DNA of 64,000 nt from a candidate division FCPU426 bacterium (GTDB taxonomy: Bacteria; Oederibacteriota; PGYV01; Palsa-1178). The DNA is taken from NCBI GenBank assembly GCA_963840035.1, contig CAWIXE010000001.1, positions 480,001-544,000 of the forward strand, in the 5' to 3' direction. Below are positions 9,664-64,000 of this stretch, piece after piece. Position numbers and translations under genes: made by a program. The stretch's first letter is position 1; every line of letters begins with the position of its first letter. The notes beneath the pieces were generated by a model. The model did no database searches. It was not told the DNA's origin and was given only the letters and a program-made list of their open reading frames with translations.

Positions 9664-10364
9664 AAACCCTTATAGTCATACCTACTTACAACGAAAAGGA
9701 AAACATTAGCAAGATCATACCCGCTATTAAGAAGTCATTTAAGCAGGCGCATATACTCGTAGTCGACGACGCCTCGCCTGACGGCACCGGCGCTGCTGTA
9801 AAAGCCATGGCAAAAAAAGACAGTTCCATTAAGCTTATCGAACGCGACGGCAAATACGGGCTGGGTACGGCATATGTGGATGGATTTAAATACGCAGTTA
9901 AAAACAAATACGACTATATATTTGAGATGGACGCGGACTATTCCCACGACCCGAAATACCTGCCGGATTTTATGAACGCCATAAAAGGCGCTGACCTTGT
10001 GGTGGGTTCCAGGTATGTCAACGGCGTCTCAGTAATTAACTGGCCTTTGCGCAGGCTCATGCTGTCAAAATTCGCCAATTTTTACGCCAGGACCATTACC
10101 GGATTGCCCATGACAGACTGCACAAGCGGATTTAAATGTTATAAAAGGAAGGTCCTGGAGGCCATAGACCTAAACTCTATTCATTCCGACGGTTATGCAT
10201 TTCAGATAGAGATGCATTATAAGGCGTGGAAAAAGGGCTTTAAGATAAAAGAAACCCCCATTATATTTGTGGACAGGATAAACGGCACATCAAAGATGTC
10301 AAGGCGGGTCATAGCCGAGGCCGCGTGGATAGTATGGAAGTTAAAGATGGGGATGATAAAATAA
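9660..10364 (+). CDS. Polyprenol monophosphomannose synthase-like GT2 (Dpm1/Ppm1 family)
   Basis: IPTYNEKENI, VVDDASPDGT, GLGTAY, MDADYSHDP, DCTSGFKC, GYAFQIE. Confidence 0.92.
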   Translation: MKTLIVIPTYNEKENISKIIPAIKKSFKQAHILVVDDASPDGTGAAVKAMAKKDSSIKLIERDGKYGLGTAYVDGFKYAVKNKYDYIFEMDADYSHDPKYLPDFMNAIKGADLVVGSRYVNGVSVINWPLRRLMLSKFANFYARTITGLPMTDCTSGFKCYKRKVLEAIDLNSIHSDGYAFQIEMHYKAWKKGFKIKETPIIFVDRINGTSKMSRRVIAEAAWIVWKLKMGMIK

Positions 10365-10434
10365 GCCAAAAGCTCAAAGCCCATAGCCCAAGGGTAATAA
10401 GCCACCTTGAGCTTTGGGCTCTGGGCTATGGATT
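10364..10434. repeat. Inverted heptamer array (AGCYCAA)x4 - loop - (TTGGGCT)x4
   Basis: agccaaa agctcaa agcccat agcccaa ... ttgagct ttgggct ctgggct atggatt; same family at 12752-12822. Confidence 0.85.
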
Positions 10435-11420: not shown

Positions 11421-11954
11421 GTGATCAGGGCTTTCATAGGAATACCGCTCGAAGACAGCGTAAAAAAGCGCCTGGCCAGCATACTGCCCGATTTTGGAAG
11501 GGTTAAACTTGTTGAAAAGGAAAACCTGCACATCACCCTGAAGTACTTAGGCGACATAGACGAAGCAAACCTTGATAATATCAAAAAGTGCATCGATGAA
11601 GCCGCGGCGGAAACGGAAAAGATCAGCATTACCATAAACTCCATAGAGGCTTTCCCGTCAGTTCCGCGGGCAAAGGTAATGTGGGCAGGCATAGACATAG
11701 GGGCCTATGAGATAGGGCTGGTATTTAAAAACCTGGAAGAGTCCTTAACGGGCATTGGTTTTAAGAAGGAAGAAAGGGATTTTACCGCGCACGTGACAGT
11801 GGCGCGCACAAAAGACTGGATAGACATAAGCTTTACGCAGAATATGAATTTCATAATACCCGGCACAGCAGGGTCATTAGTGCTGTATAAAAGCAAACTC
11901 ACGGCAAACGGTCCGGTGTATGAGGAGCTTTATGTAAGGGAAATGGGTGGGTAG
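11421..11954 (+). CDS. thpR: RNA 2',3'-cyclic phosphodiesterase (2H phosphoesterase)
   Basis: RAFIGI; two HxT motifs (LHITLKYLG, AHVTVAR); LYKSKL..GPVY. Confidence 0.92.
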   Translation: MIRAFIGIPLEDSVKKRLASILPDFGRVKLVEKENLHITLKYLGDIDEANLDNIKKCIDEAAAETEKISITINSIEAFPSVPRAKVMWAGIDIGAYEIGLVFKNLEESLTGIGFKKEERDFTAHVTVARTKDWIDISFTQNMNFIIPGTAGSLVLYKSKLTANGPVYEELYVREMGG

Positions 11955-12040
11955 TGAGTGGTGGGTAGTGTGTGGCAGGCAGCAAGTAAAAACACATACG
12001 ACTGATGAGATCATTGAGACTATTGAGATTTCTGAGACCA
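11946..12040. repeat. Composite tandem repeat: 6 x 7-mer (RGTGRGT-like) followed by 4 x 9-mer (NTGAGAYYN)
   Basis: ggtgggt agtgagt ggtgggt agtgtgt ggcaggc agcaagt; atgagatca ttgagacta ttgagattt ctgagacca; the first units overlap the thpR stop. Confidence 0.75.
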
Positions 12041-12753: not shown

Positions 12754-12822
12754 ACCAAAGCCCATAGCTCAAAGCCCAAGGGGTAATACCTTCCCTGGGC
12801 TTTGGGATTTGGGCTCTTGGAT
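12752..12822. repeat. Inverted heptamer array (AGCYCAA)x4 - loop - (TTGGGCT)x4
   Basis: agaccaa agcccat agctcaa agcccaa gg(gtaata)... ctgggct ttgggat ttgggct cttggat. Confidence 0.85.
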
Positions 12823-12839
12823 TCTGCGTGGAGGCTCCA

Positions 12840-25020: not shown

Positions 25021-25103
25021 AAGTCAAAACTCAAAAGTCAAAAGTCAAAAGTGAAGCGGCATTTTAGTTCCACTTTTGAATTTTGAGTTTTGACTTTTGA
25101 CTT
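25021..25103. repeat. Inverted heptamer array (AAGTCAA)x4 - loop - (TTGACTT)x4
   Basis: aagtcaa aactcaa aagtcaa aagtcaa aagtg ... cactt ttgaatt ttgagtt ttgactt ttgactt. Confidence 0.88.
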
Positions 25104-25154
25104 TGTTTGGTTGAAGGAAGAAACTAAAATTTTGCGCGTTTTGGAGGATGTATT

Positions 25155-28284: not shown

Positions 28285-28342
28285 TCACAAATCCCAAAGG
28301 AAAGCAATTTTTGGGATTTGTGATTTGAGATTTGTGATTTGG
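28283..28342. repeat. Inverted heptamer array (AATCMCA)x2 - loop - (TTGKGAT)x4
   Basis: aatcaca aatccca aa ... ttgggat ttgtgat ttgagat ttgtgat. Confidence 0.8.
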
Positions 28343-28814: not shown

Positions 28815-28839
28815 CGAGAAAAGATTCCGGCGCATTATT

Positions 28840-28887
28840 TGAGACGCCTTATCTGAGACGAACCACCTGAGACGATTCATCTGGGTC
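28840..28887. repeat. 14-bp-period direct repeats (TGAGACG-N7)x3
   Basis: tgagacgccttatc tgagacgaaccacc tgagacgattcatc tgggtc. Confidence 0.7.
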
Positions 28888-28917: not shown

Positions 28918-29382
28918 ATGGCTGACATGTACTTTCTGGCTGATTACCCGATATACAGGGATTTTGACGCTGAAGACATAGAAATACTCGGCAAGATATG
29001 CGAGGAAAAAAAGTACGCCAACGGCCAGGCTGTTTTTAAGGAAAACGAAACAGGCGACGGTCTGTATATAATCAGGAAAGGCGTCGTAAAGATATTAAAA
29101 GAAAATAAAACAAGAAAAAAACTCATTGCCACCCTTGCCGAAGGGGAGTTTTTCGGCGAGATGTCATTGATAGACGGCTCGCCGCGCTCAGCGTCAGTGG
29201 AAGCCTCCGGCGAGGTGGAGCTTGTAAAGCTTACAAAGGACGGCTTTGAAAAATTAAAGACAGAGTATTCCCGCACGGGATTCAAGTTCGTGGGGGTGCT
29301 GCTGAAATTCATGAGTTACAGGATAAGAAGGACTACAAAGAAGGCGGCCAAGCTGATGAAGGGGAGAAAGAAGAAAAAGTAA
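28918..29382 (+). CDS. Stand-alone cyclic-nucleotide-binding domain protein
   Basis: VFKENETGDGLYIIRKG, GEFFGEMSLIDGSPRSASV; no HTH; basic tail. Confidence 0.88.
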   Translation: MADMYFLADYPIYRDFDAEDIEILGKICEEKKYANGQAVFKENETGDGLYIIRKGVVKILKENKTRKKLIATLAEGEFFGEMSLIDGSPRSASVEASGEVELVKLTKDGFEKLKTEYSRTGFKFVGVLLKFMSYRIRRTTKKAAKLMKGRKKKK

Positions 29383-29412
29383 TTTACAATTTTCAATTTA
29401 CGATTTACAATT
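29381..29412. repeat. Heptamer array (AATTTAC)x4
   Basis: aatttac aattttc aatttac gatttac aatt. Confidence 0.6.
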
Positions 29413-29479: not shown

Positions 29480-30895
29480 ATGAAAAAAATATTTGCAATA
29501 CTGGCGTTTTTTGGCTTTGCGGCAGGTCTTTTTGCCGCCCCGAACCTTTACGTGGGTTATGATAAGGCAAAAAAAATAACAGTCATAGACTCGGCTGTAA
29601 ATGAGGCAACCGGAGACATAGTCCTGAAAACCGCCGTCTCCGACATGAAACTTGACCCGGATGACAGGTATCTATATTATACCAGCAGGGAAGCAAACGC
29701 GCTTTACAGGATAAAAACAAAGAACCTGACTGTTGACGCTGATTTTACAAGCACGGGCTACGCGCCGGTCGGGATAGCCATAAAAAATGACAACAAGGCA
29801 ATATATGTAATAAACTCCAAATCAAACAACATTTCCGTAATAGACCCGCAGACCATGGAATCAATCGGAGACCCCATCACGCTGCCGGCGAGCCCCAGGG
29901 CGATAGTAATAACCGATGACGACAGGAAAGCGTACATAGCCCTCTCGGATACCAACGGAGTGGCTCTTTTGGATATCGCGACCGGCAAGATCACCGGAGT
30001 CATACCCACCGGCGCGGACCCTTACGCGCTTACCACTTATAATAACAAACTGCTTTTTGTCACGAACGAAGGCATGGCTAGCGTCTCTGTTATAGACATG
30101 AAAAAGAACGCGGTTATAAATGAAATAGTCACCACTGACATGCCCAGGGGCATGGCTGTGTATGGCAACCTGCTTTATGTATCCGTAATGAACGGTATTG
30201 ATATTTTTGAGCTTAAAGGCTTTACCAAGCCGTCATCAGTGGGGCTTGATTATACGCCGTTTGACTGCGAATTCGGCAAAACTCCGTCAGGCCCGAGGAT
30301 ATTCTCGGCGGGTTACGCGGACGGAGCCACATCGGGTAAAGTCACCGTATTTAACCCGGCCGAAGGCGACATAATAACGGAGATAGAACTTGAAGGCGCG
30401 CCAAAGTACCTTGAGATAAGGAAAATAAAACCCACACCGGTACCGACAGCCACTTTAGTCCCGACAAAAGTGCCGACCGCCGTCCCGACGGAAGTGCCAA
30501 CAAAAGTTCCGACCATAGCCCCGACAAAGGTTCCGACAAAAATCCCGACAAAGGCGCCTACGCCGAAACCTACACCAATTCCGAAAAAGAAAAAGAAACC
30601 GACTCCGGTGCCGACAGTAGACATGATGCTCAAGGCTGACTTAAAGGGAAGGCTGTTTTTTGAGAACAGGCCGGTTGCCGCAGGCATCAAGGTAAAGGCG
30701 CTTTCAAAGCACAGCGATAAGGTTTATACGGTATTAACAGACGATAGCGGCAGGTTCATATTTGAAAAACTGCCCATAGGCGCGTATGTCGTGTCCGTGG
30801 ACGCCACTTATATAAAGGAAAAAGCAGTCCCGGTTACGGTAAACAGGGGATCAAACCCGGTTCTTGAGATCAATACCGTGAAGAGGACACAATGA
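29480..30895 (+). CDS. Exported YncE/YVTN beta-propeller + PT-repeat linker + carboxypeptidase-regulatory-like beta-sandwich
   Basis: Signal peptide; YVINSKSNNISVID and FVTNEGMASVSVID repeats; (VPTK/VPTA)n; TDDSGRFIFEKLPIGAY. Confidence 0.85.
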   Translation: MKKIFAILAFFGFAAGLFAAPNLYVGYDKAKKITVIDSAVNEATGDIVLKTAVSDMKLDPDDRYLYYTSREANALYRIKTKNLTVDADFTSTGYAPVGIAIKNDNKAIYVINSKSNNISVIDPQTMESIGDPITLPASPRAIVITDDDRKAYIALSDTNGVALLDIATGKITGVIPTGADPYALTTYNNKLLFVTNEGMASVSVIDMKKNAVINEIVTTDMPRGMAVYGNLLYVSVMNGIDIFELKGFTKPSSVGLDYTPFDCEFGKTPSGPRIFSAGYADGATSGKVTVFNPAEGDIITEIELEGAPKYLEIRKIKPTPVPTATLVPTKVPTAVPTEVPTKVPTIAPTKVPTKIPTKAPTPKPTPIPKKKKKPTPVPTVDMMLKADLKGRLFFENRPVAAGIKVKALSKHSDKVYTVLTDDSGRFIFEKLPIGAYVVSVDATYIKEKAVPVTVNRGSNPVLEINTVKRTQ

Positions 30896-31791
30896 AGAAA
30901 CATCACGCAAAAGCAAAGGACGCTGACGCGATAAAGAAGGAAAAGGAAGGGGTCATTATCCTTTCCGTGGCGTCCAACGCGGTGCTTGTCATATTCAAGC
31001 TTATAATAGGCTTTATGACAGGATTGGTAAGCGTTATAGCAGAGGCGCTGCATTCAGCAAATGACCTGCTGGCATCAGTCATAGCCTACTTCGGGGTTAA
31101 GGGGTCTTTAAGGCCGCCTGACAAGGAACATCCTTACGGACACGGCAAGGTGGAGATAATAACCGGATGGATAGAAAATTTTCTCATCCTGATAATAGGG
31201 ATAGGGATTATTTATGAGGGATATAAAAAGTTCACGGAAAGGTCTGAGCCAAAGCTTATTATCGTAGGTATAGCCATAATGATACTTTCCGGCATAGTCA
31301 ACTGGTTTGTCTCGGTATACCTGATTAAAAAAGGCAAGGAACTCCGGTCAGTTGGCATAGAAGTTGACGGGGAACACCTGCGCGCCGATGTCATCACTTC
31401 TTTCGGAATTGCCGCGGCGCTTATAGTCATGCAGTTAAGCGGAATATGGTGGCTTGACCCGCTTGGAGCGGTTTTCGTGGGGGTATGGGTACTCGGCATA
31501 TTTGTGAGGCTTTCATACAAGCTCACGCACCAGATTATTGACATGGGGCTTTCTGACGAAGAGACAGCAAGGATCGAAGAAGTCCTGAGAAACACAAAGG
31601 GAATTAAGGAATACCATAAGTTAAGGACCCGCCAGAGCGGATCAACAGTATTTATAGACATGCACGTTTTAGTTGACGGCAAAATGACCGTGAAGGCGTC
31701 CCATGACATGACTGAAAAGATACAGAAACAATTAAGGCATATGTTCGGGGATGTTAATTCAATGATACATGTGGAACCATATAACAAATAA
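30892..31791 (+). CDS. Cation diffusion facilitator family transporter (FieF-like)
   Basis: AEALHSAND, PPDKEHPYGHGKVE, HLRADV, LRTRQSG, IHVEP. Confidence 0.93.
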   Translation: MKKHHAKAKDADAIKKEKEGVIILSVASNAVLVIFKLIIGFMTGLVSVIAEALHSANDLLASVIAYFGVKGSLRPPDKEHPYGHGKVEIITGWIENFLILIIGIGIIYEGYKKFTERSEPKLIIVGIAIMILSGIVNWFVSVYLIKKGKELRSVGIEVDGEHLRADVITSFGIAAALIVMQLSGIWWLDPLGAVFVGVWVLGIFVRLSYKLTHQIIDMGLSDEETARIEEVLRNTKGIKEYHKLRTRQSGSTVFIDMHVLVDGKMTVKASHDMTEKIQKQLRHMFGDVNSMIHVEPYNK

Positions 31792-31825
31792 TTTTATATT
31801 TTCAATTTTAGATTTGAAATTTGAA
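31791..31825. repeat. Heptamer array (ATTTWNN)x5 between convergent genes
   Basis: attttat attttca attttag atttgaa atttgaa. Confidence 0.5.
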
Positions 31826-31835
31826 AAACGGAAGG

Positions 31836-36588: not shown

Positions 36589-36765
36589 ATGAAAAAATTA
36601 ATTGTAATAGCAATGGCGGCAATGATAATGGCAGCGGCGGCTTTTGCGGCTGAAACAACAGCACCTTCAGGGATGGCGGTTGCAAAGCACGCAAAGCACG
36701 TCAAGCATGTAAAGCACCATAAAAGTACCACGGCAAAGGTTACAGCCACACCTGAAACAAAGTAA
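36589..36765 (+). CDS. Small exported Ala/Lys/His-rich peptide (Asr-like), 58 aa, absent from the ORF track
   Basis: AGGAGG RBS; MKKLIVIAMAAMIMAAAAFA/AETTAPSGMAVAKHAKHVKHVKHHKSTTAKVTATPETK*. Confidence 0.8.
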   Translation: MKKLIVIAMAAMIMAAAAFAAETTAPSGMAVAKHAKHVKHVKHHKSTTAKVTATPETK

Positions 36766-48902: not shown

Positions 48903-48967
48903 CGGAGGAAGATCGAGACAAGAGACTGGAGACAGGAATAAGTAAGACATAGTTCACGGAGGTTCAC

Positions 48968-54830: not shown

Positions 54831-55724
54831 ATGCCACAGGTATCAATGAAAGCACTTCTCGAAAGCGGCGTCCATTTCGGACACCAAACCAAACGCTGGA
54901 ACCCGAAGATGAAACCTTATATCTTTGCGGCACGTAACGGCATTTACATCATCGACCTGCAGAAGACACTCAAGTACACCAAGGACGCCATCGTGTTCGT
55001 AAAAGACATCGTCCGCAAGGGCAAGAACATCATGTTCGTCGGAACAAAAAAACAGGCCAAAGACGCCATCAAGGAAGAAGCCATACGCTGCGGCATGCCT
55101 TTCGTATGCTCCAGGTGGTTAGGCGGCACCATGACTAACTTCGAGACCATCAGGAAAAGGATGGAAAGGTTAAGGCAGCTTGAAGAAATGGACGCATCCG
55201 GCGGATTCGAACGCTATCCGATCAAGGAAAAAATGTCCATGCAGAAAGAACTCAGGAAACTTTCAGAGAACTTAGGCGGCCTTAAGGAAATGGGAACGCT
55301 CCCGGGAGCCATATTTGTCATAGACACAAAGCGCGAAGAAAACGCCGTTAAAGAAGGAAACAAACTCGGAATTCCCGTCATAGCCGTGGTTGACACGAAC
55401 TGCGACCCGGAACCTATCGACGTTTTAATCCCGGGAAATGACGACGCCATCCGCGCCGTACGCTTAATGTGCAAGATCATGGCGGACACCATCATAGAGG
55501 AAAAAGTTGCCATGGAAAAAGAGAAAGAACAGCAGATAAAGCAGGAAGCTGAAACAGCGGCTATCGCCGCTGACGCCGCAGCCGCCTCATCGCCGGAAGA
55601 AAAAGAAAAGATAGCGGCGCAGGTTGTGGACACCACGGATTACGCGGAAGTTTTCGTTGATGAACTTGACGCAGAGGGAAACGTAAAGCCGAGGAAAGCG
55701 AAGAAAAAAGAGGGCGAAGAATAG
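54831..55724 (+). CDS. rpsB: 30S ribosomal protein S2
   Basis: [53 protein letters not shown]; acidic C-terminal extension. Confidence 0.98.
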
Positions 55725-55730
55725 TAATCG

Positions 55731-55762
55731 GATTCTGAATTCTAAATTTTAGATTCTGGATT
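55731..55762. repeat. Heptamer array (RATTYTR)x4
   Basis: gattctg aattcta aatttta gattctg gatt. Confidence 0.65.
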
Positions 55763-55808
55763 GAAAGGCAAGACCTAAAACTTACATAACATCTTAAGGA
55801 GATAAGTC

Positions 55809-56411
55809 ATGGCTGAGATATCAAAGGATCTGGTAAAAGATTTACGCGAGAAATCAGGCGCCGGGATGGGCGATTGCTTAAAGGCGCTTCAGGAAACCAA
55901 CGGCGATATGACAAAGGCAATGGAAGTATTAAGGCAGAAGGGCATAGCTTCGGCTGATAAGCGCACGGCGCGCAAGGCAAAAGAAGGGCTCGTATACGCT
56001 TACATCCATGGCGGCGGAAAAGTCGGCACCATGGTGGAGATAAACTGCGAAACAGACTTTGTGGCAAGGACCAAGGAATTTGAGGACCTGTGCAAGGAAG
56101 TCGCCATGCAGGTGGCCGCAATGTCGCCGAGATGGGTAAAAAGGGAAGAAGTTCCGGCCGAGATAGTCGCGAAAGAAAAAGAAATATACGCGGCGCAGAT
56201 GGCGGACCAGAAAAAACCGCCAAATGTCATAGAGAAGATCATCGAGGGAAAACTCGAAAAATTTTACAAAGACACATGCTTAATTGAGCAGGCGTATATA
56301 AAGGATGATTCAAAGAACATAGATACGATAGTAAAAGAAGCCATAGGAAAGATCGGCGAAAATATAGTGGTAAAAAGGTTTTCAAGGTTTGTACTTGGAG
56401 AAGAAATTTAA
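55809..56411 (+). CDS. tsf: Translation elongation factor Ts (short form)
   Basis: VKDLREKSGAGM.DC, EINCETDFVA, GENIVVKRFSRF. Confidence 0.97.
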   Translation: MAEISKDLVKDLREKSGAGMGDCLKALQETNGDMTKAMEVLRQKGIASADKRTARKAKEGLVYAYIHGGGKVGTMVEINCETDFVARTKEFEDLCKEVAMQVAAMSPRWVKREEVPAEIVAKEKEIYAAQMADQKKPPNVIEKIIEGKLEKFYKDTCLIEQAYIKDDSKNIDTIVKEAIGKIGENIVVKRFSRFVLGEEI

Positions 56412-56416
56412 AAGTC

Positions 56417-56517
56417 AGTGCGGAGGGTAAAGTTCGGAGTTCGGAGTTGACATAATTAACCGAACTAATGCGGTTGTTTATGTTGAACTCCGAACTCCGA
56501 ACCCCGAACTCCGAACT
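56417..56517. repeat. Inverted heptamer array (AGTTCGG)n - loop - (GAACTCC)n
   Basis: agtgcgg agggtaa agttcgg agttcgg agtt ... gaactcc gaactcc gaacccc gaactcc gaact. Confidence 0.88.
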
Positions 56518-56547
56518 TAATTTTGTTAAACCAACTGGGGGCCGCGT

Positions 56548-57264
56548 ATGGGAAAAACAAAAAAGTACAAGAGAATCATGCTGAAAATCTCCGGCGAAGC
56601 GCTTGGCGGGGAAAAAGGCTCGGGCATCGATTATGATACTGTGTATTCCATAGCTGAAGAAATAAAAGAAGTGCACAAACAGGGGGTCCAGATAGCCCTC
56701 GTAATAGGCGGCGGGAACATCTTCCGCGGCGGCAGGGGAAAAAATTTCAAGATAGACCGCGTGGTCGGCGATTATATGGGCATGCTCGCCACCGTCATAA
56801 ACGCCATGGCATTCCAGGACGTGCTCGAGCAGATGGGCGTAAAGACCAGGGTATTATCCGCCATTGAAATGCAGAAAATAGCCGAGCCATTCATACGCCG
56901 CAGGGCGCAGAGGCACCTCGAAAAAGGGCGCGTCGTTATCTTCGCCGGAGGCACCGGAAACCCTTACTTCACCACGGATACGGCGGCAGCGCTGCGCGCC
57001 ATTGAGATAGGCTCCGAAGTCGTGCTTAAAGCCACCAAAGTCGGCGGCGTTTACACGGGCGACCCGGAAAAAGACAAAACCGCGAAAAAATACGACACCT
57101 TAAAATACATCGACGTCTTAAACCAGCACCTTCAGGTCATAGACTCGACGGCCATATCGCTTTGCATGGACAACAAGATACCGGTAATTATTTTCAACCT
57201 TAAGGAAAAAGGCAATATTCAGAAGGTGGTTAACGGAAAGAAAATAGGGACGATCATTCAATAA
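56548..57264 (+). CDS. pyrH: UMP kinase
   Basis: [41 protein letters not shown]. Confidence 0.98.
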
Positions 57265-57280
57265 TCTCCTGGAGGGAATC

Positions 57281-57835
57281 ATGGATAAAGTATTCGCCGA
57301 GCTTGAAACAAAAATGAAAAAAACAACCGAGGTTTTTCAGAAAGAACTTTCAAATATCAGGACAGGCAGGGCAAGCGCCGCGGTTTTAGACGGCGTGCGC
57401 GTAATGTACTACGGCAACCCCATGCCGATAAACCAGGTCGCGGCCATTTCAGTGGTTGAGGCAAAGACCCTCGACATCAAGCCGTGGGACAAAGGCGTGG
57501 TAAAGGACCTTGAAAAAGCCATCATGGAAGCAAACCTTGGACTCTCCATTGTCAATACGGGAGATTCGCTGAAGGTAAGGTTCCCGGATTTAACGGAAGA
57601 GACCAGGAAAGATCTCGTAAAAAAAGTTAAAAAGATGTCGGAAGAGTCAAAAGTGGACCTCCGCAACATACGCAGGGATTTTAATGAAAAGGTTAAGGAC
57701 CAGGAGAAGAACAAGGAAATATCACAGGACGAATTAAAGCTCGCCGAAACACACATACAAAAAGCCACGGATAAGCACATACTCAACATAGACAACATAG
57801 TAAAGGACAAAGAAAAAGAATTAATGACCATATAA
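57281..57835 (+). CDS. frr: Ribosome recycling factor
   Basis: IRTGRAS, YYG, P.LTEE.RK, RNIRRD, KEKELM. Confidence 0.97.
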   Translation: MDKVFAELETKMKKTTEVFQKELSNIRTGRASAAVLDGVRVMYYGNPMPINQVAAISVVEAKTLDIKPWDKGVVKDLEKAIMEANLGLSIVNTGDSLKVRFPDLTEETRKDLVKKVKKMSEESKVDLRNIRRDFNEKVKDQEKNKEISQDELKLAETHIQKATDKHILNIDNIVKDKEKELMTI

Positions 57836-57840
57836 AATAC

Positions 57841-57913
57841 ATGTCGGATATCGGATGTCGGATATCGGATATAAACTGCAAGATCCGCAAACCGCAATCT
57901 GCGATCCGCAAGC
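57841..57913. repeat. Two adjacent heptamer arrays: (ATRTCGG)x4 and (RATCCGC)x4
   Basis: atgtcgg atatcgg atgtcgg atatcgg; gatccgc aaaccgc aatctgc gatccgc. Confidence 0.85.
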
Positions 57914-57929
57914 GCATGATTGGATGATA

Positions 57930-58649
57930 ATGGATAAAAAAATGAAAGTCCCGGCCCACATTGCCATCATCATGGACGGTAACGGCAGATGGGCCAATAA
58001 AAGGAACCTTCCCAGGGTGCTAGGCCATAAGGAAGGGGCAAAATCTGTCAAGGCCATCACCGAAGCTTGCGCCGAGCTCGGGGTAAAATACCTCACTTTA
58101 TACGCTTTCTCCACCGAAAACTGGAAAAGGCCGGAAAAGGAAGTGGGATTCCTCATGGATCTTTTATCCAGCCACCTCGACAATGAAAAAAAGACAATGA
58201 TGAAAAACAACGTCCGCCTTTTAACCATCGGCGACATAGACAGGCTTCCCGCGAAAGTCACAAAAAAACTAGATTCCGTGAAAAAAGCCACATCAAAAAA
58301 TACCGGACTTAAACTCGTGCTCGCCCTGAATTACGGGTCAAAAAGGGAAATTACAAAGGCCGTGCGCGACATAGCCGCAAAGGCAAAAAAAGGCAGGATA
58401 AAAATATCAGATATAAATGAAGAGACAATATCAGGCCATCTTTACACAAAGGGGATGCCTGACCCTGACCTTCTTATCCGGACCAGCGGGGAGATGAGGA
58501 TATCAAATTTTCTGCTGTGGCAGATTGCCTATTCGGAGATATATGTGACAGATGTGCTCTGGCCCGATTTCAGAAAAAAAGAACTCCTTGCCGCGCTTGA
58601 GAATTTCAGCGCGCGCGAAAGAAGATTCGGAGGCGTTACCGCGTCATGA
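57930..58649 (+). CDS. uppS: Undecaprenyl diphosphate synthase (isoprenyl transferase)
   Basis: HIAIIMDGNGRWA, YAFSTENWKRP, NYG, DLLIRTSGEMRISNFLLWQ; start moved past the repeat-derived extension. Confidence 0.96.
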   Translation: MDKKMKVPAHIAIIMDGNGRWANKRNLPRVLGHKEGAKSVKAITEACAELGVKYLTLYAFSTENWKRPEKEVGFLMDLLSSHLDNEKKTMMKNNVRLLTIGDIDRLPAKVTKKLDSVKKATSKNTGLKLVLALNYGSKREITKAVRDIAAKAKKGRIKISDINEETISGHLYTKGMPDPDLLIRTSGEMRISNFLLWQIAYSEIYVTDVLWPDFRKKELLAALENFSARERRFGGVTAS

Positions 58650-59458
58650 AAACAAGGCTGATACTCTCCCTTATAATAGTACCCATATTTGCTTTCATTC
58701 TTTTTAACACCAACCCCTGGCCGTTAATCGGAGTAATGATAGTGGCGCTTACATGGGCCCTGACAGAAGTGTATTCGATGCTGAGGGCAAAGGAATTAAA
58801 ACCCTACGACTGGGCCGGGGTTATTTTCGGCCTTTACATTTACGCGATGACGCTGCTAAAAATGGACGCGGCCATACTATACGGCTGGGCAGTATTTATG
58901 ATACTGATATTCACCCTTGCTGTTTTATCAAGGAATGAAATGAATTTTACGCGTATCGGGGCCACATACCTGCCTTTAATTTATATTTCCTCCCTGGGTA
59001 TATTCGGGCTGAAACTGAGAATGATGGATCACGGGTATTACATGACGTTCCTGCTATTTCTTTATACACTTGTCTATGACGGCGGGGCGTATTTTGCCGG
59101 TTCGTTTTTCGGAAAGAACAAACTTATACCTGAAATTTCAAAAGGTAAAACAATAGAAGGCTGCGTCGGCGGGGTAATAGTGAGCATGATAACGGTCATC
59201 ATTGTAGGGCTAACATGGCTGCCGAAGGACCTCTTCGGGCCAAATACGATGATTCACCTTATAATACTTTCAGTCCTGCTCTCAGTTGTTGGCCAGCTCG
59301 GCGACTTAAGCGCCTCTTTATTAAAGAGGTTCTGCGGCGTAAAAAACTCATCAAACCTTCTGCCCGAGATGGGCGGGGTCCTGGATAAGATAGACTCGGC
59401 AATGTTTAACGCGCCAGTGCTGTTTTTGTATGCTGTTTTTGTGACGAAGTTGTTTTAG
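58646..59458 (+). CDS. cdsA: Phosphatidate cytidylyltransferase
   Basis: D.GAYFAG..FGKNKL.PEIS.GKT.EG, GDL.AS.LKR..GVK.S..L.P..GG.LD. Confidence 0.93.
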   Translation: MKTRLILSLIIVPIFAFILFNTNPWPLIGVMIVALTWALTEVYSMLRAKELKPYDWAGVIFGLYIYAMTLLKMDAAILYGWAVFMILIFTLAVLSRNEMNFTRIGATYLPLIYISSLGIFGLKLRMMDHGYYMTFLLFLYTLVYDGGAYFAGSFFGKNKLIPEISKGKTIEGCVGGVIVSMITVIIVGLTWLPKDLFGPNTMIHLIILSVLLSVVGQLGDLSASLLKRFCGVKNSSNLLPEMGGVLDKIDSAMFNAPVLFLYAVFVTKLF

Positions 59459-59463
59459 CAGGT

Positions 59464-59591
59464 TATATTGGATATACGATATGCGATATTAGATATAAAC
59501 TATACAATATTTGATATACGATATAGGATATTAGATATAAAACCGGCGGTTTAAGCCATATATCTAATATCCGATATCCAATATCCAATAT
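59464..59591. repeat. Long inverted heptamer array (GATATNN)x11 - loop - (ATATCYN)x4
   Basis: gatatac gatatgc gatatta gatataa ... atatcta atatccg atatcca atatcca. Confidence 0.88.
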
Positions 59592-59606
59592 TACCAAGGA
59601 TGACTT

Positions 59607-60752
59607 ATGAAAAAAGTGGTAATCATCGGTTCCACCGGGTCCATAGGAAAGTCGGCGCTTGACCTTTTTGACACCGTGCTTAAGGATTATCAGGTGCTGG
59701 CGTTATCCGCAAACGAAAACGTTGTGGAACTGGCAAAACAGGTAAAAAAATACAGGCCGAAATACGCCGTCATAACAAACCCTGAGAATAATAACATCAT
59801 AAAAAAGGCCAACAAATCCACAAAAGTCTTAAACGGCATTAACGGATTGATGGAGATAGCTTCGTTAAAAGAAGCTGACCTCATACTGCTCGGGCTTGTC
59901 GGGTCCGTCGGCATAGTCCCTTTAATGGCGGCGGCGCGCGCTGGAAAGCGCATTGCCATGGCAAACAAGGAATCCCTGGTAATGGCCGGTTCCATAGTGT
60001 TAAACGAAGTAAAAAAATACGGCGCCGAAATAATACCCGTGGACTCGGAGCACAGCGCCATATTCCAGTGCCTTCAGGGCAATGATGTTGAAAACGTAAA
60101 AAGGCTCATCATCACAGCTTCAGGCGGCCCGTTTAAAAATTTAAAGGCTTCAGGGTTAAAGCACATCACGCCTGAGCAGGCCTTAAACCATCCGACATGG
60201 AAAATGGGAAAAAAAATCACCATAGACTCATCCACACTGATGAACAAGGGGCTGGAAGTCATAGAAGCGCATTACCTCTTCGGCCTGCCCTTTGAAAAAA
60301 TAGACGTCGTCATACACCCGCAGTCCATCATTCACTCCATGGTGGAGTACATAGACGGCTCCATCATGGCGCAGATGTCGCACCCTGACATGAGGCTGCC
60401 TATACTTTACGCGCTGACATATCCGGGCAGGCGCGCCGGCGTCATAAAGCCCATGAGTTTTTCAGAAATAGCAAGGCTGGATTTTTTCAAAGTGGACTTC
60501 AAGAAGTTTCCGTGCTTTGAGCTTGCTTTATCCGCGGGAAAGACGGGCGGCACTATGCCCGCTGTCATGAACGGCGCGAACGAGGCAGCCGTGAATAATT
60601 TCCTAAATAAAAAAATTGCTTTTGATAAAATACCGTATTATGTGAGGAAGACTATGGAATCGCATAAAACCGTGAAGAAGCCGGGAATAGATGAAGTGCT
60701 GCGAGCGGACCTTCTGGCCCGCGCAAGCGTGGAGGAGATGATAAATGGTTGA
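59607..60752 (+). CDS. dxr: 1-deoxy-D-xylulose-5-phosphate reductoisomerase
   Basis: GSTGSIG, ANKESLV, PVDSEHSA, HPTWKMGKKITIDS, NKGLEVIEA, NGANE. Confidence 0.98.
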   Translation: MKKVVIIGSTGSIGKSALDLFDTVLKDYQVLALSANENVVELAKQVKKYRPKYAVITNPENNNIIKKANKSTKVLNGINGLMEIASLKEADLILLGLVGSVGIVPLMAAARAGKRIAMANKESLVMAGSIVLNEVKKYGAEIIPVDSEHSAIFQCLQGNDVENVKRLIITASGGPFKNLKASGLKHITPEQALNHPTWKMGKKITIDSSTLMNKGLEVIEAHYLFGLPFEKIDVVIHPQSIIHSMVEYIDGSIMAQMSHPDMRLPILYALTYPGRRAGVIKPMSFSEIARLDFFKVDFKKFPCFELALSAGKTGGTMPAVMNGANEAAVNNFLNKKIAFDKIPYYVRKTMESHKTVKKPGIDEVLRADLLARASVEEMING

Positions 60753-62091
60753 GATACTGTACATAATAATAACGATAGGCCTGACAATATTTGTCCATGA
60801 GCTGGGCCATTTTGTGGCCGCAAAAAGGCTCGGGGTAAAAGTCGAAAAATTCGCCATAGGTTGGGGGCCCAAGATTGCTTCTTTTAAAAAAGGCGACACA
60901 GAATACTTAATAGCCCTGTTTTTCTTCCTGGGCGGTTACGTAAAGATGGCGGGGGAAAATCCTGAGGAAGCAGAGGCCATAGGGGACCGCGCGTTCTTAA
61001 AACAGGCGCCGTGGAAAAAAATAGTTATATCGGTTTCCGGGGTAATACAAAACGCCATCTTCGCGGTATTCCTCATGTGGATAGTATTTCTTTTCGGCAC
61101 GGATTCATTAAAGCCGGTCATTGACGACGTTAAAAAAGGCTACCCCGCATATGAAGCCGGGTTAAAACGCGGGGATATCATTACAGGAATAAACAGCGAG
61201 AAGGTGCTCTACTGGAACCAGATATCGGAGTTCATATCAGCCACAAAAGGGGAACCGGTAAAAATTTCGGTGAACCGCGAAGGTAAAGCCATTGAGTTTA
61301 CCCTAAAGCCTGTTATGGAGGAGAGCGAGGATATATTAAAGGATAAGAAAATGAAACCGATCCTCGGGATTACGCCGCTGACGATACTTCCCGTGGTTGA
61401 GGAATTAAAAAAAGGCTTTCCCGCGGAAGCCGCCGGGATGAAAAAAGGCGATATAATCAAAAAAATAGACGGCAAAGAGATAAAATACTGGGAAGACTTT
61501 ACCGCCGCGATACAATCCTCAAAAGGAAAAGAAATTAAAATGACCCTGGAAAGGGCGGATAAAACGCTGAAGACAGGGACAGTGGAAGTGCGCCTCTCGC
61601 CGAAGATGGTGATTACCGAGGACGAGGAAAAGAAAAAAATAGAGACATATCAGATAGGCATATCACCGCTTGGAAACTATACCAAGGAGCATTACGGCCC
61701 GGTAAAAGCCCTGGAAAAAGGGGCAAAGCAGGCGTGGTTCTTTACAGAGATAACCGTAAAATCCATATATAAGATGATAGCGCGCAAAATAGAGCCTGAC
61801 ATAGCCGGCCCCATAGGCGTGGCTCAGATAGCCTATAAGGTGGCAAAGACAGGGCTTATAAACCTGCTGCTGTTAATCGCCATCATTAACATCAACCTAG
61901 CGCTTTTCAACCTCCTGCCGCTTATTCCTTTCGACGGCGGGCTCATAGTAATGTTCCTGGTGGAAGCAATCACGGGAAAAGCAGTGCCTTTAAAAGCGCA
62001 GGAGATAATGATGGAAATAGGCTGGGCCCTTGTCATAGTGCTGATACTGTTTGTGACGTACAGCGATATAATGAGGCTTATAAAAGGATAA
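60745..62091 (+). CDS. rseP: RIP metalloprotease RseP with two PDZ domains
   Basis: HELGH, GGYVKM, two PA..AG.K.GD PDZ repeats, GPIG, NLLPLIPFDGG. Confidence 0.95.
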   Translation: MVEILYIIITIGLTIFVHELGHFVAAKRLGVKVEKFAIGWGPKIASFKKGDTEYLIALFFFLGGYVKMAGENPEEAEAIGDRAFLKQAPWKKIVISVSGVIQNAIFAVFLMWIVFLFGTDSLKPVIDDVKKGYPAYEAGLKRGDIITGINSEKVLYWNQISEFISATKGEPVKISVNREGKAIEFTLKPVMEESEDILKDKKMKPILGITPLTILPVVEELKKGFPAEAAGMKKGDIIKKIDGKEIKYWEDFTAAIQSSKGKEIKMTLERADKTLKTGTVEVRLSPKMVITEDEEKKKIETYQIGISPLGNYTKEHYGPVKALEKGAKQAWFFTEITVKSIYKMIARKIEPDIAGPIGVAQIAYKVAKTGLINLLLLIAIININLALFNLLPLIPFDGGLIVMFLVEAITGKAVPLKAQEIMMEIGWALVIVLILFVTYSDIMRLIKG

Positions 62092-62119
62092 TGCGGATTG
62101 GCGATTGCGGAATGCGGAA
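62092..62119. repeat. Heptamer array (TGCGGAW)x4
   Basis: tgcggat tggcgat tgcggaa tgcggaa; reverse-complement family of the 57882-57909 array. Confidence 0.7.
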
Positions 62120-62145
62120 TAAATACAAAACCAGGCGGAAGATGA

Positions 62146-63210
62146 ATGACAAATAAAGTAAAGATCGGAAAAGTTACCATAGGCGGGGGGAATCCCATCG
62201 CGGTGCAGTCCATGACGAATACAAAGACTGCCAACGTGAAGGCTACTGTCGCGCAGATTCAGCGGCTAACTTCCGCCGGCTGTGAGATAGTGCGCTGCGG
62301 CATACCTGACATGGAGTCGGCGCAGGCGCTTAAAGACATTAAGAAAAAAATTAAAATACCTCTCGTGGCGGATATCCATTACGATTACAGGCTTGCCATA
62401 GAGTCCATGAAGAACGGGGCGGACAAGATAAGGATCAACCCGGGAAATATCGGCGCGGCTGAAAAAGTGCAGGCAGTCATAGAAGCGGCGCAGAAATACA
62501 AATGCGCCATAAGGGTGGGAGTGAATTCAGGATCGCTAAAGGCAGCTGAAAATTTAAAACTGAAAATTGAAAGTGGAAACAAAACCGCAAACACCATGGT
62601 TGGTTCGCTTATGGAACATATTGAGTTCTTTGAACGGTTGGAATTTTCCGACATTGTCGTATCGCTTAAAGCCTCCGACATACTCACCACGTTTGAAGCG
62701 TACAAACTTTTTTCAAAGCTGCGCGATTATCCCACACACATAGGGATTACCGAGGCGGGAACGGAACTTGGCGGCGTTATAAAATCATCAGCCGGCCTCG
62801 CGCTGCTTTTAAATGAGGGTATCGGCGATACCATGAGGGTTTCGCTTACTGCGGAGCCTGAAAAGGAAATATATGTGGCGTACAGGATACTCGACGCGCT
62901 AAATAAAAGGAAGAGGGGCGTGGATATCATCTCGTGCCCCACGTGCGCAAGGACAGAGATAGACGTGATAAAACTGGCGCATGACGTGGAGAAGATGACA
63001 ATGAACGTGGAAAAACCCCTGAAAGTGGCTGTTATGGGCTGCTCAGTCAACGGCCCCGGCGAAGCTTCCCACGCGGACATAGGAGTGGCAGGAGGCAGGG
63101 GAATAGGGCTGATATTTAAGAAAGGAAAGATAATAAAGAAAGTGAAGAAGGCTGTGCTGTTGAAGGAGTTTAGTAAAGAACTTAAGAAGAGTTTAAGAGA
63201 CAAGAGATAG
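62146..63210 (+). CDS. ispG: HMBPP synthase (flavodoxin-dependent)
   Basis: VQSMTNTKT, VADIHYD, RINPGNIG, RVGVNSGSL, GDTMRVSL, SCPTCAR, VMGCSVNGPGE. Confidence 0.98.
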   Translation: MTNKVKIGKVTIGGGNPIAVQSMTNTKTANVKATVAQIQRLTSAGCEIVRCGIPDMESAQALKDIKKKIKIPLVADIHYDYRLAIESMKNGADKIRINPGNIGAAEKVQAVIEAAQKYKCAIRVGVNSGSLKAAENLKLKIESGNKTANTMVGSLMEHIEFFERLEFSDIVVSLKASDILTTFEAYKLFSKLRDYPTHIGITEAGTELGGVIKSSAGLALLLNEGIGDTMRVSLTAEPEKEIYVAYRILDALNKRKRGVDIISCPTCARTEIDVIKLAHDVEKMTMNVEKPLKVAVMGCSVNGPGEASHADIGVAGGRGIGLIFKKGKIIKKVKKAVLLKEFSKELKKSLRDKR

Positions 63211-63293
63211 GAGCCAGGAGTAAGGAAAAACAACGGCAGCAAAAGAGTCGTTTTTCGGTTTACTTCTGTCTCCAATCTCTTGTCTCTTGTCTC
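63197..63293. repeat. Inverted heptamer array (GAGACAR)x4 - loop - (YTGTCTC)x4 overlapping the ispG stop
   Basis: gagacaa gagatag gagccag gagtaag ... ctgtctc caatctc ttgtctc ttgtctc; same unit family at 48915-48935. Confidence 0.82.
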
Positions 63294-63319
63294 AAAAATT
63301 TTATTTTAAGGAGCCTCAC

Positions 63320-64000
63320 ATGCGCTGGTCAAAAGCCCTTATTAATACCCTCCGCGAAACGCCGAAAGAAGCGGAAACCGTCGCCCACAAATATATGCTG
63401 CGCGCGGCCATGATAAAAAAACTCGGGGCGGGAGTATACGACTGGATGCCGCTCGGGTTTAAATCATTATCAAAGGTAACAGCCATCATACGCGAAGAGA
63501 TGAACCGCGCCGGCGCGCAGGAAGTGCTTTTGCCTGTGCTCTCCCCAGCCGAACTATGGAAGGAAACAAACAGATGGAACGTTTATGGCAAAGAACTTAT
63601 GAGGATCACAGACAGGCACAACAATGAATTCGCGCTCGGGCCCACGCACGAAGAGGTCATAACCGATTTAATCCGCAGGGAAGTCAATTCATACAAGCAG
63701 CTCCCGCAGAACCTCTACCAGATACAGGTTAAGTTCCGCGACGAGATAAGGCCGCGTTTCGGAGTAATGCGTTCGCGCGAATTCATGATGAAAGACGCCT
63801 ACTCCTTTGACCGCGATGAAAAAGGCGCGATGGAAAGCTATAAAACCATGTTTGAGACATATGTCAGGATATGCAAGCGCATAGGATTCAAATTCAGGCC
63901 GGTTGAGGCCGACTCGGGCGCCATAGGCGGAAATTTATCCTCGGAATTCATGGTCTTAGCCGACACCGGAGAAGACACAATAGTATACTGCGACAAATGC
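63320..64000 (+). CDS. proS: Proline--tRNA ligase (5' part, runs off the window)
   Basis: [80 protein letters not shown]. Confidence 0.97.

Follow-up and report, generated by a model that had tools for sequence, protein, structure and literature searches.

Fixed-size heptanucleotide repeat arms at operon junctions and inside genes of a candidate division FCPU426 bacterium and their association with four-helix-bundle genes

Since 2007, heptamer repeats have been recognized as the commonest long simple repeats of bacteria, and to our knowledge there is no accepted cause for them. In cyanobacteria, heptamer arrays between genes are known as short tandemly repeated repetitive sequences (STRRs). 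Here, we describe arrays with a 7-nt period in the rpsB-proS operon and throughout the genome of a candidate division FCPU426 bacterium. The window is the complete stretch of 64,000 nt that was analysed (contig CAWIXE010000001.1, positions 480,001 to 544,000), and the source genome, G000, comprises 3.46 Mb in three contigs with 47% GC and is 98% complete. Among the closest described systems are the GGGAATC heptamers of Xanthomonas and Nostoc, which prefer four units, form 70-75 inverted pairs per genome and are of unknown function (Rehm et al. 2015, PMC4692102). According to the accessible passages of the same paper, they lie within 50 nt of stop codons on the coding strand, are attributed to G-quadruplex (G4) formation, and are given no link to four-helix-bundle genes (PMC4692102). 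The TAACTGA repeats of Beggiatoaceae, cyanobacteria and Bacteroidetes are described, in the part of the source at hand, as intergenic and oriented with respect to genes, some of them overlapping or lying inside open reading frames (MacGregor 2015, PMC4679880).

The arrays of G000 resemble the GGGAATC repeats, as far as the available passages describe these, in their 7-nt units, in comprising about four units, in their inverted pairs, their proximity to stop codons and their mostly intergenic location; heptamer repeats, the four-unit bias and inverted pairs are already in print for Xanthomonas. Different from those repeats, about 20 mostly AT-rich families follow one count rule in G000, and G4 formation therefore cannot be the cause. 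In contrast to TAACTGA, which in the portion of the literature at hand is one perfect unit found mostly as direct repeats before start codons, the units described here are degenerate, paired and divided into many families. They also differ from the perfect or near-perfect copies that slippage would make in repeats of the STRR or Xanthomonas type, because adjacent units avoid identity and 0 of 168 arms are perfect. A five-anchor count rule, a non-identity rule and a fit to a pentameric protein were not found in the literature searched, which consisted mostly of open main text.

With slightly better than even confidence, we read the arrays as 31-nt modules with five anchors that are shared with the ends of cassettes carrying four-helix-bundle genes, that are copied by insertion or overwriting at the DNA level, and that are predicted to be recognized by a pentamer with one anchor per subunit. 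This reading joins a fixed anchor count, an inward polarity, shared unit families, lineage-specific presence, the flanking of four-helix-bundle genes, equal-length replacement and a change of family at the same site, all of which were observed.

The arrays are arms of fixed size, built from five 3-nt anchors at 7-nt spacing and spanning 31 nt. The most frequent array lengths are 31 and 32 nt (127 arrays each), and the longest runs of exact triplets at 7-nt spacing in intergenic arrays count three anchors in 111 cases, four in 200, five in 350, six in 18 and seven or more in 11. The largest family consists of ATT-NNNN repeated four times and a final ATT; of its 186 arms, 168 have five anchors, 15 have four and 3 have six. 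The TCTCAATGA family of G000 has a 9-nt period, and its 24 aligned arms measure about 39 nt and consist of four units and the beginning of a fifth; a 9-nt family with the same unit design indicates that the rule concerns the anchor count and not the length. By eye, an Adhaeribacter genome has 8-nt arms of the same appearance, and 400-kb samples of three other genomes (G010, G041 and G045) gave median period-7 lengths of 29, 32 and 31.5 nt, respectively. The TCTCAATGA arms also occur with inverted pairs, e.g. at C1:556290 and C1:621845 of G000, and a different 9-nt array lies at 36682-36717 of the window.

That the four-unit length results from G4 formation, as proposed for Xanthomonas and Nostoc, is exceedingly improbable. 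Rehm et al. reported G4 spectra along with the four-unit preference in the passages at hand (PMC4692102), but four G3 tracts are present in only 12 of 696 intergenic arrays of G000 and four G2 tracts in 59, and the length rule is sharpest in the main family, which is AT-rich. With 12 of 696 arrays able to form a three-tier G4, this candidate was refuted as a general cause in G000.

About 20 unit families recur in G000, and the units seen in the window have 9 to 33 members each. Each family has a single polarity: neighbouring arrays at most 100 nt apart are inverted in 139 of 162 cases, compared to 7.7% at random, and of the main-family pairs, 45 point inward and 1 outward. In the usual layout, one inward-facing arm lies just past a stop codon, and its mirror precedes the ribosome-binding site that follows. 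A loose partner test on 484 spacers, which may overcall pairs in near-palindromic families, found both arms in 352, the first arm only in 80 and the mirror only in 52. Among 155 arms, 114 are distinct, and hairpin interiors are locus-specific, with only 22 of 137 related to another. One hairpin sub-family has a common interior with a TATTATAAT core that resembles a -10 box (C1:775829, C1:689104, C1:780258, C3:38658 and C3:39171). Copies of a transposase, which we take to be IS30-like, lie within the hairpin interiors at C2:827246 and C3:228244, one of them split in two frames.

Neighbouring units within an arm avoid being identical. In 168 five-anchor arms, units 1 and 2 are identical 4 times and units 2 and 3 once, compared to 30.5 and 27.6 expected from column shuffles, while units 3 and 4 are identical 58 times (64.9 expected). 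None of the 168 arms is a perfect repeat (9.3 expected), and 2 are one change away from it (23.2 expected). Likewise, the two arms of one hairpin differ at 4.4 positions, compared to 3.98 in permuted pairs of the family (45 pairs, p about 0.01); this excess is absent from 7 pairs of the sister family ATTTTAG (p 0.44), and other families were too small. The avoided identity of neighbouring units and of paired arms speaks against both slippage and a selection of RNA stems that pair perfectly, each of which predicts the opposite.

Polymerase slippage with a 7-nt bias, which would make the arrays local simple-sequence repeats, is Mrazek's proposal as cited in the parts of the two papers at hand (PMC4679880 and PMC4692102). 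A few arrays have indeed grown to near-perfect runs of 295-666 nt, and long arrays are found beside four-helix-bundle genes elsewhere. However, slippage yields identical neighbours, which are depleted here, and it leaves the shared families, the inward pairs, the fixed count and the link to four-helix-bundle genes unexplained. We therefore regard it as very unlikely in general and as largely refuted for the typical arm. The runaway expansions from near-perfect units are rare and measure 295, 357 and 666 nt (C2:1613143 and two other arrays).

The arrays are a real, genome-wide feature that is not specific to one operon. In our lag scan, period-7 arrays occupy 505 of 2,027 spacers of at least 20 nt, compared to 1-4 in five shuffles, and arrays with periods of 5, 6, 8 and 9 nt occupy 2, 28, 7 and 23 of these spacers, respectively. 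The total is 739 period-7 arrays, 695 of them mostly intergenic; as the detector passes over degenerate arms, array counts are lower bounds. Tandem Repeats Finder, at scores of at least 40, returned 453 rows for period 7 and 0, 24 and 2 for periods 5, 6 and 8. The initial annotation would have been refuted without this excess over periods 5, 6 and 8 or without a positional bias relative to stop codons and operons, and both are present: of 442 co-directional spacers, 220 have a first array that begins no more than 5 nt from the stop, compared to 36 when arrays were placed at random once. A last array that reaches to within 5 nt of the start codon is seen in only 6 of the 442, and mostly its end lies 10-30 nt before it. 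The proposed restriction to highly expressed operons was not supported, since arrays occur in 18, 24, 36, 36 and 34% of spacers by rising codon-score quintile; the bias toward highly expressed genes is mild. Deposition after stop codons only was not upheld either, because arms are also found within 15 of 2,086 genes.

These 15 genes have an internal exact 17-mer of an intergenic arm, compared to 1-4 in codon-shuffled controls (gene calls are from our own codon model, which gave 2,842 genes and missed some short ones). The arms inside genes suggest that the stop-codon bias at least partly reflects survival where copies are tolerated. The arm within ispG agrees with 19 other places in G000 at no fewer than 29 of 38 nt, and at 32 in the best case, and the corresponding 19-residue segment has the same length in 17 of 17 relatives that lack this arm, of which G011 has a similar one. 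Among 13 in-gene sites that were compared, six show no length change or differ by at most three residues from the closest relatives: those in IspG, a metallo-beta-lactamase-fold protein, the LeuRS C-terminal open reading frame, TrmD, PyrK and IorA, where all names other than IspG are presumptive and were assigned by us from sequence motifs. The metallo-beta-lactamase-fold protein has equal length in 13 of 14 relatives, and the same helix holds a different five-anchor arm in G020; PyrK has another arm in G010. A 25-residue stretch of IorA holds a different arm family in each of G000, G002 and G006 and has no arm in G004; its length is equal in these four genomes and six residues shorter in G001 and G003. 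Furthermore, two in-frame hairpins occupy the same site in G000 and G001 with different units. These unit swaps at fixed sites indicate that a site can keep its place and period while its unit changes, as the initial annotation had put it for the operon, with the period conserved and the sequence not. The LeuRS C-terminal part (C2:291114-291941, L253) is an open frame of 284 residues in G000 and 283 in G011, compared to about 830 in most relatives; it may represent a split gene, a frameshift or a contig end.

At the six junctions of the operon, relatives have mostly short spacers, and 9 of 39 loci contain any period-7 array, with other units and in other gaps; this comparison covers genomes other than G020 and, for tsf/pyrH and pyrH/frr, a part of the rows. 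Elsewhere, the pyrC-carA junction is filled in G000 and empty in 5 of 5 relatives. Conversely, some cassettes of relatives lie at junctions that are empty in G000 (L051, L056/L065 and L071) and others at junctions where G000 has the arms of another family (L045, L050 and L064). Matches to the main-family pattern number 117 in G000, compared to 17 and 9 in two genomes of the same family and 1-3 in three others; 35 of 41 genomes have none. In those two same-family genomes, a common main-family linker is one that is nearly absent from G000. These counts and the linker difference indicate a lineage-specific unit library. A metagenome scan with CdsA gave four loci, none of them close, and in the best (66%) the cdsA/dxr spacer is short and no array was detected in it; a low-depth contig about 93% alike showed 14 gaps across the rseP/ispG spacer and was judged too weak to use.

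The initial annotation had suggested that heptamer modules are deposited and are connected with four-helix-bundle genes, and this is supported by arms that flank such genes both in G000 and across phyla. G000 has 8 matches to TIGR02436, all 8 above its cut-off and 7 of 8 above that of PF05635, and 3 of 7 full genes lie between inverted arms, while 110 of 2,842 genes have arrays on both sides as background. The unit family of the first tsf/pyrH arm also borders a four-helix-bundle gene, at C1:786298. Among 41 such genes from 40 loci of relatives, picked from the stronger TIGR02436 matches, 22 are accompanied by period-7 arrays, up to 250 nt away on the upstream side or 200 nt on the downstream side, compared to an expectation of 0.02 per window of that kind. 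Beside TIGR02436, S23p or Avd-like genes from many phyla, arrays were present in 62 of 75 scorable loci (48 with period 7, 8 with period 8 and 7 with period 9; five of 80 loci were dropped for short flanks), and period 7 was present in 4 of 66 control windows. Array density in 39 orthologous operon loci correlates with the copy number of four-helix-bundle genes (rho 0.56; kin are not independent). Two further suggestions were not supported: GxxExxY cargo had 0 matches in G000, and no filled version of the six spacers was seen, as neither the six spacers of the window nor any of the 39 orthologous loci contains a TIGR02436 match. A duplicated ATTCTCG hairpin surrounds what by eye is a tRNA-like sequence (C3:509141-509560 and C3:492969), and it is similar to a hairpin that lies upstream of a four-helix-bundle gene, at C3:492520.

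Array periods group on the protein tree, which was made with a quick method and is poorly resolved, with 13 changes compared to 20.1 after shuffling. In one clade with 100/99 support, 4 of 6 members have period-8 arrays of four different units (L065, L060, L079 and L056, from G012, G022, G025 and G023, respectively). L065 also has several direct copies of its own arm upstream. The solved relatives 2GSC and 2RLD have five chains each, and the predicted structure of a relative's protein (L045) aligns to 2GSC with a template modelling score of 0.92 and to Avd (4DWL) with 0.83. The TRAP ring is a precedent for binding one spaced triplet per subunit, and five anchors on a five-subunit ring would be a parallel by analogy. 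Avd itself is described, in the text at hand, as a pentameric barrel in which all five protomers touch the RNA and bases are flipped out between the subunits (bioRxiv 10.1101/2023.10.23.563531).

In the proposed mechanism, arms would be copied at the DNA level from cassettes and from existing arms to new sites, where they would insert or overwrite, and hairpins without genes would be non-autonomous relatives of the cassettes. Copies would survive where they are tolerated, i.e. between the stop codon and the ribosome-binding site and in loose protein segments, and near-perfect arms may be lost by slippage or excision, or may never be made. The four-helix-bundle pentamer is predicted to bind the five anchors on a single strand, with host repair or recombination enzymes as a conjectured catalytic partner. 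A wider version of this proposal, which we find doubtful, is that a catalytically silent pentamer defines a novel type of mobile system, in which it reads the five anchors on a single strand of nucleic acid and directs host enzymes to write the 31-nt module into other DNA or over it, so that both arms of an existing element and even segments of proteins would be rewritten. It would generate the bacterial excess of 7-nt repeats, with the period set by the protein clade and the copy number by the five subunits.

Selected RNA signals are an unlikely alternative, in which the arms would be hairpins that RNase III cuts to divide polycistronic messages, or mRNA sites that the four-helix-bundle protein binds and whose 3'-ends it protects, in both cases accumulated and retained under selection at each junction. 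The polarity of the arms to genes is fixed in a manner consistent with this (230 vs 21 after stops and 104 vs 29 before starts, with polarity defined from the same data), three spacers of the window fold at z values below -6, and G000 has an RNase III gene. In addition, the 23S intervening sequence of Coxiella bears heptamer repeats at an RNase III site, and its S23p gene lies in a heptamer-bearing hairpin that the enzyme excises, according to the part of the report at hand (PMC4990558). Different from that system, the arms in G000 occur in mRNA junctions and genes and are mostly gene-less, and the locus of its single 23S gene contains no period-7 array. Furthermore, hairpin mismatches show no preference for G-U over A-C (65 vs 54, p 0.36), only 1 of 114 hairpins is perfect, and arms of the same locus mismatch beyond permuted pairs, as described above; their longest perfect helix is no different from that of permuted pairs. 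Arms also lie within essential genes in both orientations, the operon of relatives works with short spacers that mostly lack arrays, and interiors that look by eye like promoters or terminators suggest that the arms are not always on one transcript.

RAYT genes are flanked by repetitive extragenic palindromic (REP) sequences. It would be quite improbable, in our view, that the arms are elements of the REP doublet (REPIN) or MITE (miniature inverted-repeat transposable element) kind, mobilized in trans by an ordinary transposase with the four-helix-bundle gene as passenger. Inverted arms around a spacer and their dispersal between genes correspond to the REPIN layout in the portion of the source at hand (PMC3337134). 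A cognate gene flanked by the same arms is a further feature in common with REPIN/RAYT systems, and G000 has 8 matches to Y1 transposases (PF01797). Unlike REPINs, the arms are periodic, not palindromic tagged hairpins, they overwrite coding DNA, and the cognate four-helix-bundle gene is without known catalytic activity. In contrast to MITEs, there is no target-site duplication, as direct repeats of 2-5 nt are not in excess where 72 elements end, and no conserved interior. In addition, none of the 8 Y1 transposases has a period-7 array within 250 nt, 114 of 155 arms are distinct, and equal-length replacement and a change of family at one site are not outcomes of transposition.

Equal-length replacement resembles the homing of diversity-generating retroelements (DGRs), in which Avd is, in the text at hand, a barrel of five four-helix-bundle subunits that all take part in RNA binding. 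An Avd-like protein and a reverse transcriptase could write the arms by mutagenic retrohoming, which we hold to be most improbable. The predicted structural kinship with Avd is in favour of it, and at one variable position A changes to T 100 times, to G 43 times and to C 8 times, an order like that of bRT misincorporation as given in the accessible part of the source (PMC7826257). Different from DGRs, however, no reverse transcriptase or template repeat was found, with no PF00078 match in the 98% complete G000, and variation affects all four bases, being as frequent at C, G and T as at A.

Several observations also weigh against the copying of five-anchor modules and their recognition by a pentamer. 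The search of G000 for reverse transcriptases and Y1 transposases gave no candidate for the writing enzyme, and both this result and the lack of target-site duplications count against DNA-level copying, as does the failure to find gene remnants among 137 hairpin interiors. Seven of the 13 in-gene sites are net insertions of about 4 to 37 residues, and equal length could also result from an insertion followed by a compensating deletion. The count of five is not universal: period-9 exact-triplet runs peak at four (36 vs 4), the TAAGG family, with alternating 6/7-nt spacing, has 74 arms of about 8 anchors, and the ceiling at five is sharp in G000 only. Five is the commonest anchor run in the G041 sample only, compared to three in those of G010 and G045, and of 92 period-7 arrays that border four-helix-bundle genes elsewhere, 27 have at least six anchors. 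The link to these genes is also incomplete, as 2 of 7 full genes in G000 have no period-7 flank, about 20 unit families face eight four-helix-bundle genes, and the largest family (ATTTTCA) borders none of them in the usual polarity. The clustering of periods on the tree is explicable by co-inheritance alone, and the ligand of Avd is, in the text at hand, a stem-loop and no periodic strand (bioRxiv 10.1101/2023.10.23.563531). The TAAGG family has a position-specific consensus, and its clusters are repeated in places (C1:241052-278421 and C1:369356-371128).

The anatomy of the arms excludes both printed explanations in G000, and slippage and G4 formation are ruled out as the cause there. This reduces the question to binding by proteins whose structure is already solved. 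If the writing of arms is true, it would act as a mutational force on operon junctions, which it reshapes, and on essential enzymes, in which it exchanges patches of ten residues, and it could possibly serve for a programmable overwriting of DNA.

Within the window, a profile check confirmed the gene names of the rpsB-proS run (Table 1), where cdsA scored below the curated cut-off and was yet the best NCBIfam match, and arrays are present at all six places named in the initial annotation. Its statement that they fill every non-trivial spacer is correct for 6 of 6 spacers longer than 20 nt, but pyrH/frr (16 nt) and two gene overlaps have no array. Head-to-head hairpins with a strong fold are confined to tsf/pyrH, cdsA/dxr and ispG/proS; in the frr/uppS spacer, the two arms belong to separate families (z -1.1), while the rpsB/tsf and rseP/ispG spacers hold one arm each. 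The units do differ between gaps, but they are not locus-specific and belong to genome-wide families of 9-33 members, and the RATCCGC unit of frr/uppS is the reverse complement of the rseP/ispG unit (ATTGCGG family). Proximity to the upstream stop holds as a genome-wide bias, but the tsf/pyrH array begins 19 nt past the stop. A seventh arm, which the earlier list lacked, lies within the ispG frame at 62549-62579. An Rfam scan of the window gave 0 matches, and a scan of the region for intrinsic terminators gave 11 sites, compared to 13.2 in shuffles, with the tsf/pyrH interior alone scoring.

Table 1. Arms, hairpin interior and host genes of the rpsB-proS region (window coordinates)
Feature	Position	Strand	Remarks
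rpsB/tsf, single 31-nt arm after the rpsB stop	55732..55762	+	five ATT anchors, four different linkers; family of 26 in G000
tsf/pyrH hairpin, first arm	56431..56448	+	GTTCGGA family, three exact anchors
tsf/pyrH hairpin, locus-specific interior that lengthens the stem	56449..56484	+	spacer fold -58.9 kcal/mol, z -7.2
tsf/pyrH hairpin, mirror arm	56485..56517	-	five anchors
frr/uppS, arm after the frr stop	57841..57872	+	ATRTCGG, four exact anchors
frr/uppS, degenerate arm in mirror orientation before uppS	57882..57915	-	RATCCGC, other family; read from the sequence, below the detector threshold
cdsA/dxr, two tandem arms after the cdsA stop	59465..59538	+	GATATNN family
cdsA/dxr, mirror arm before dxr	59560..59591	-	five anchors; spacer z -6.7
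rseP/ispG, single degenerate arm from the rseP stop	62090..62120	+	ATTGCGG family
Arm within the ispG reading frame	62540..62582	+	ACTGAAA family; five AAA anchors at 62549-62579
ispG/proS, arm across the last ispG codons and the stop	63195..63226	+	GACAGGA family
ispG/proS, mirror arm before proS	63262..63293	-	spacer z -6.5
Host gene run rpsB-tsf-pyrH-frr-uppS-cdsA-dxr-rseP-ispG-proS	54831..64000	+	context, outside the element

Further arrays of the same families, with a period of 7 or 14 nt, lie in the window beyond the span of Table 1, at 64-93, 10363-10391, 11946-11975, 12796-12823, 25021-25104, 28310-28341, 28831-28883, 29381-29412, 31790-31826 and 48915-48937. A repeat with a 12-nt period at 30457-30554 is probably coding, and repeats with periods of 12 and 24 nt are frequent within the coding DNA of G000.

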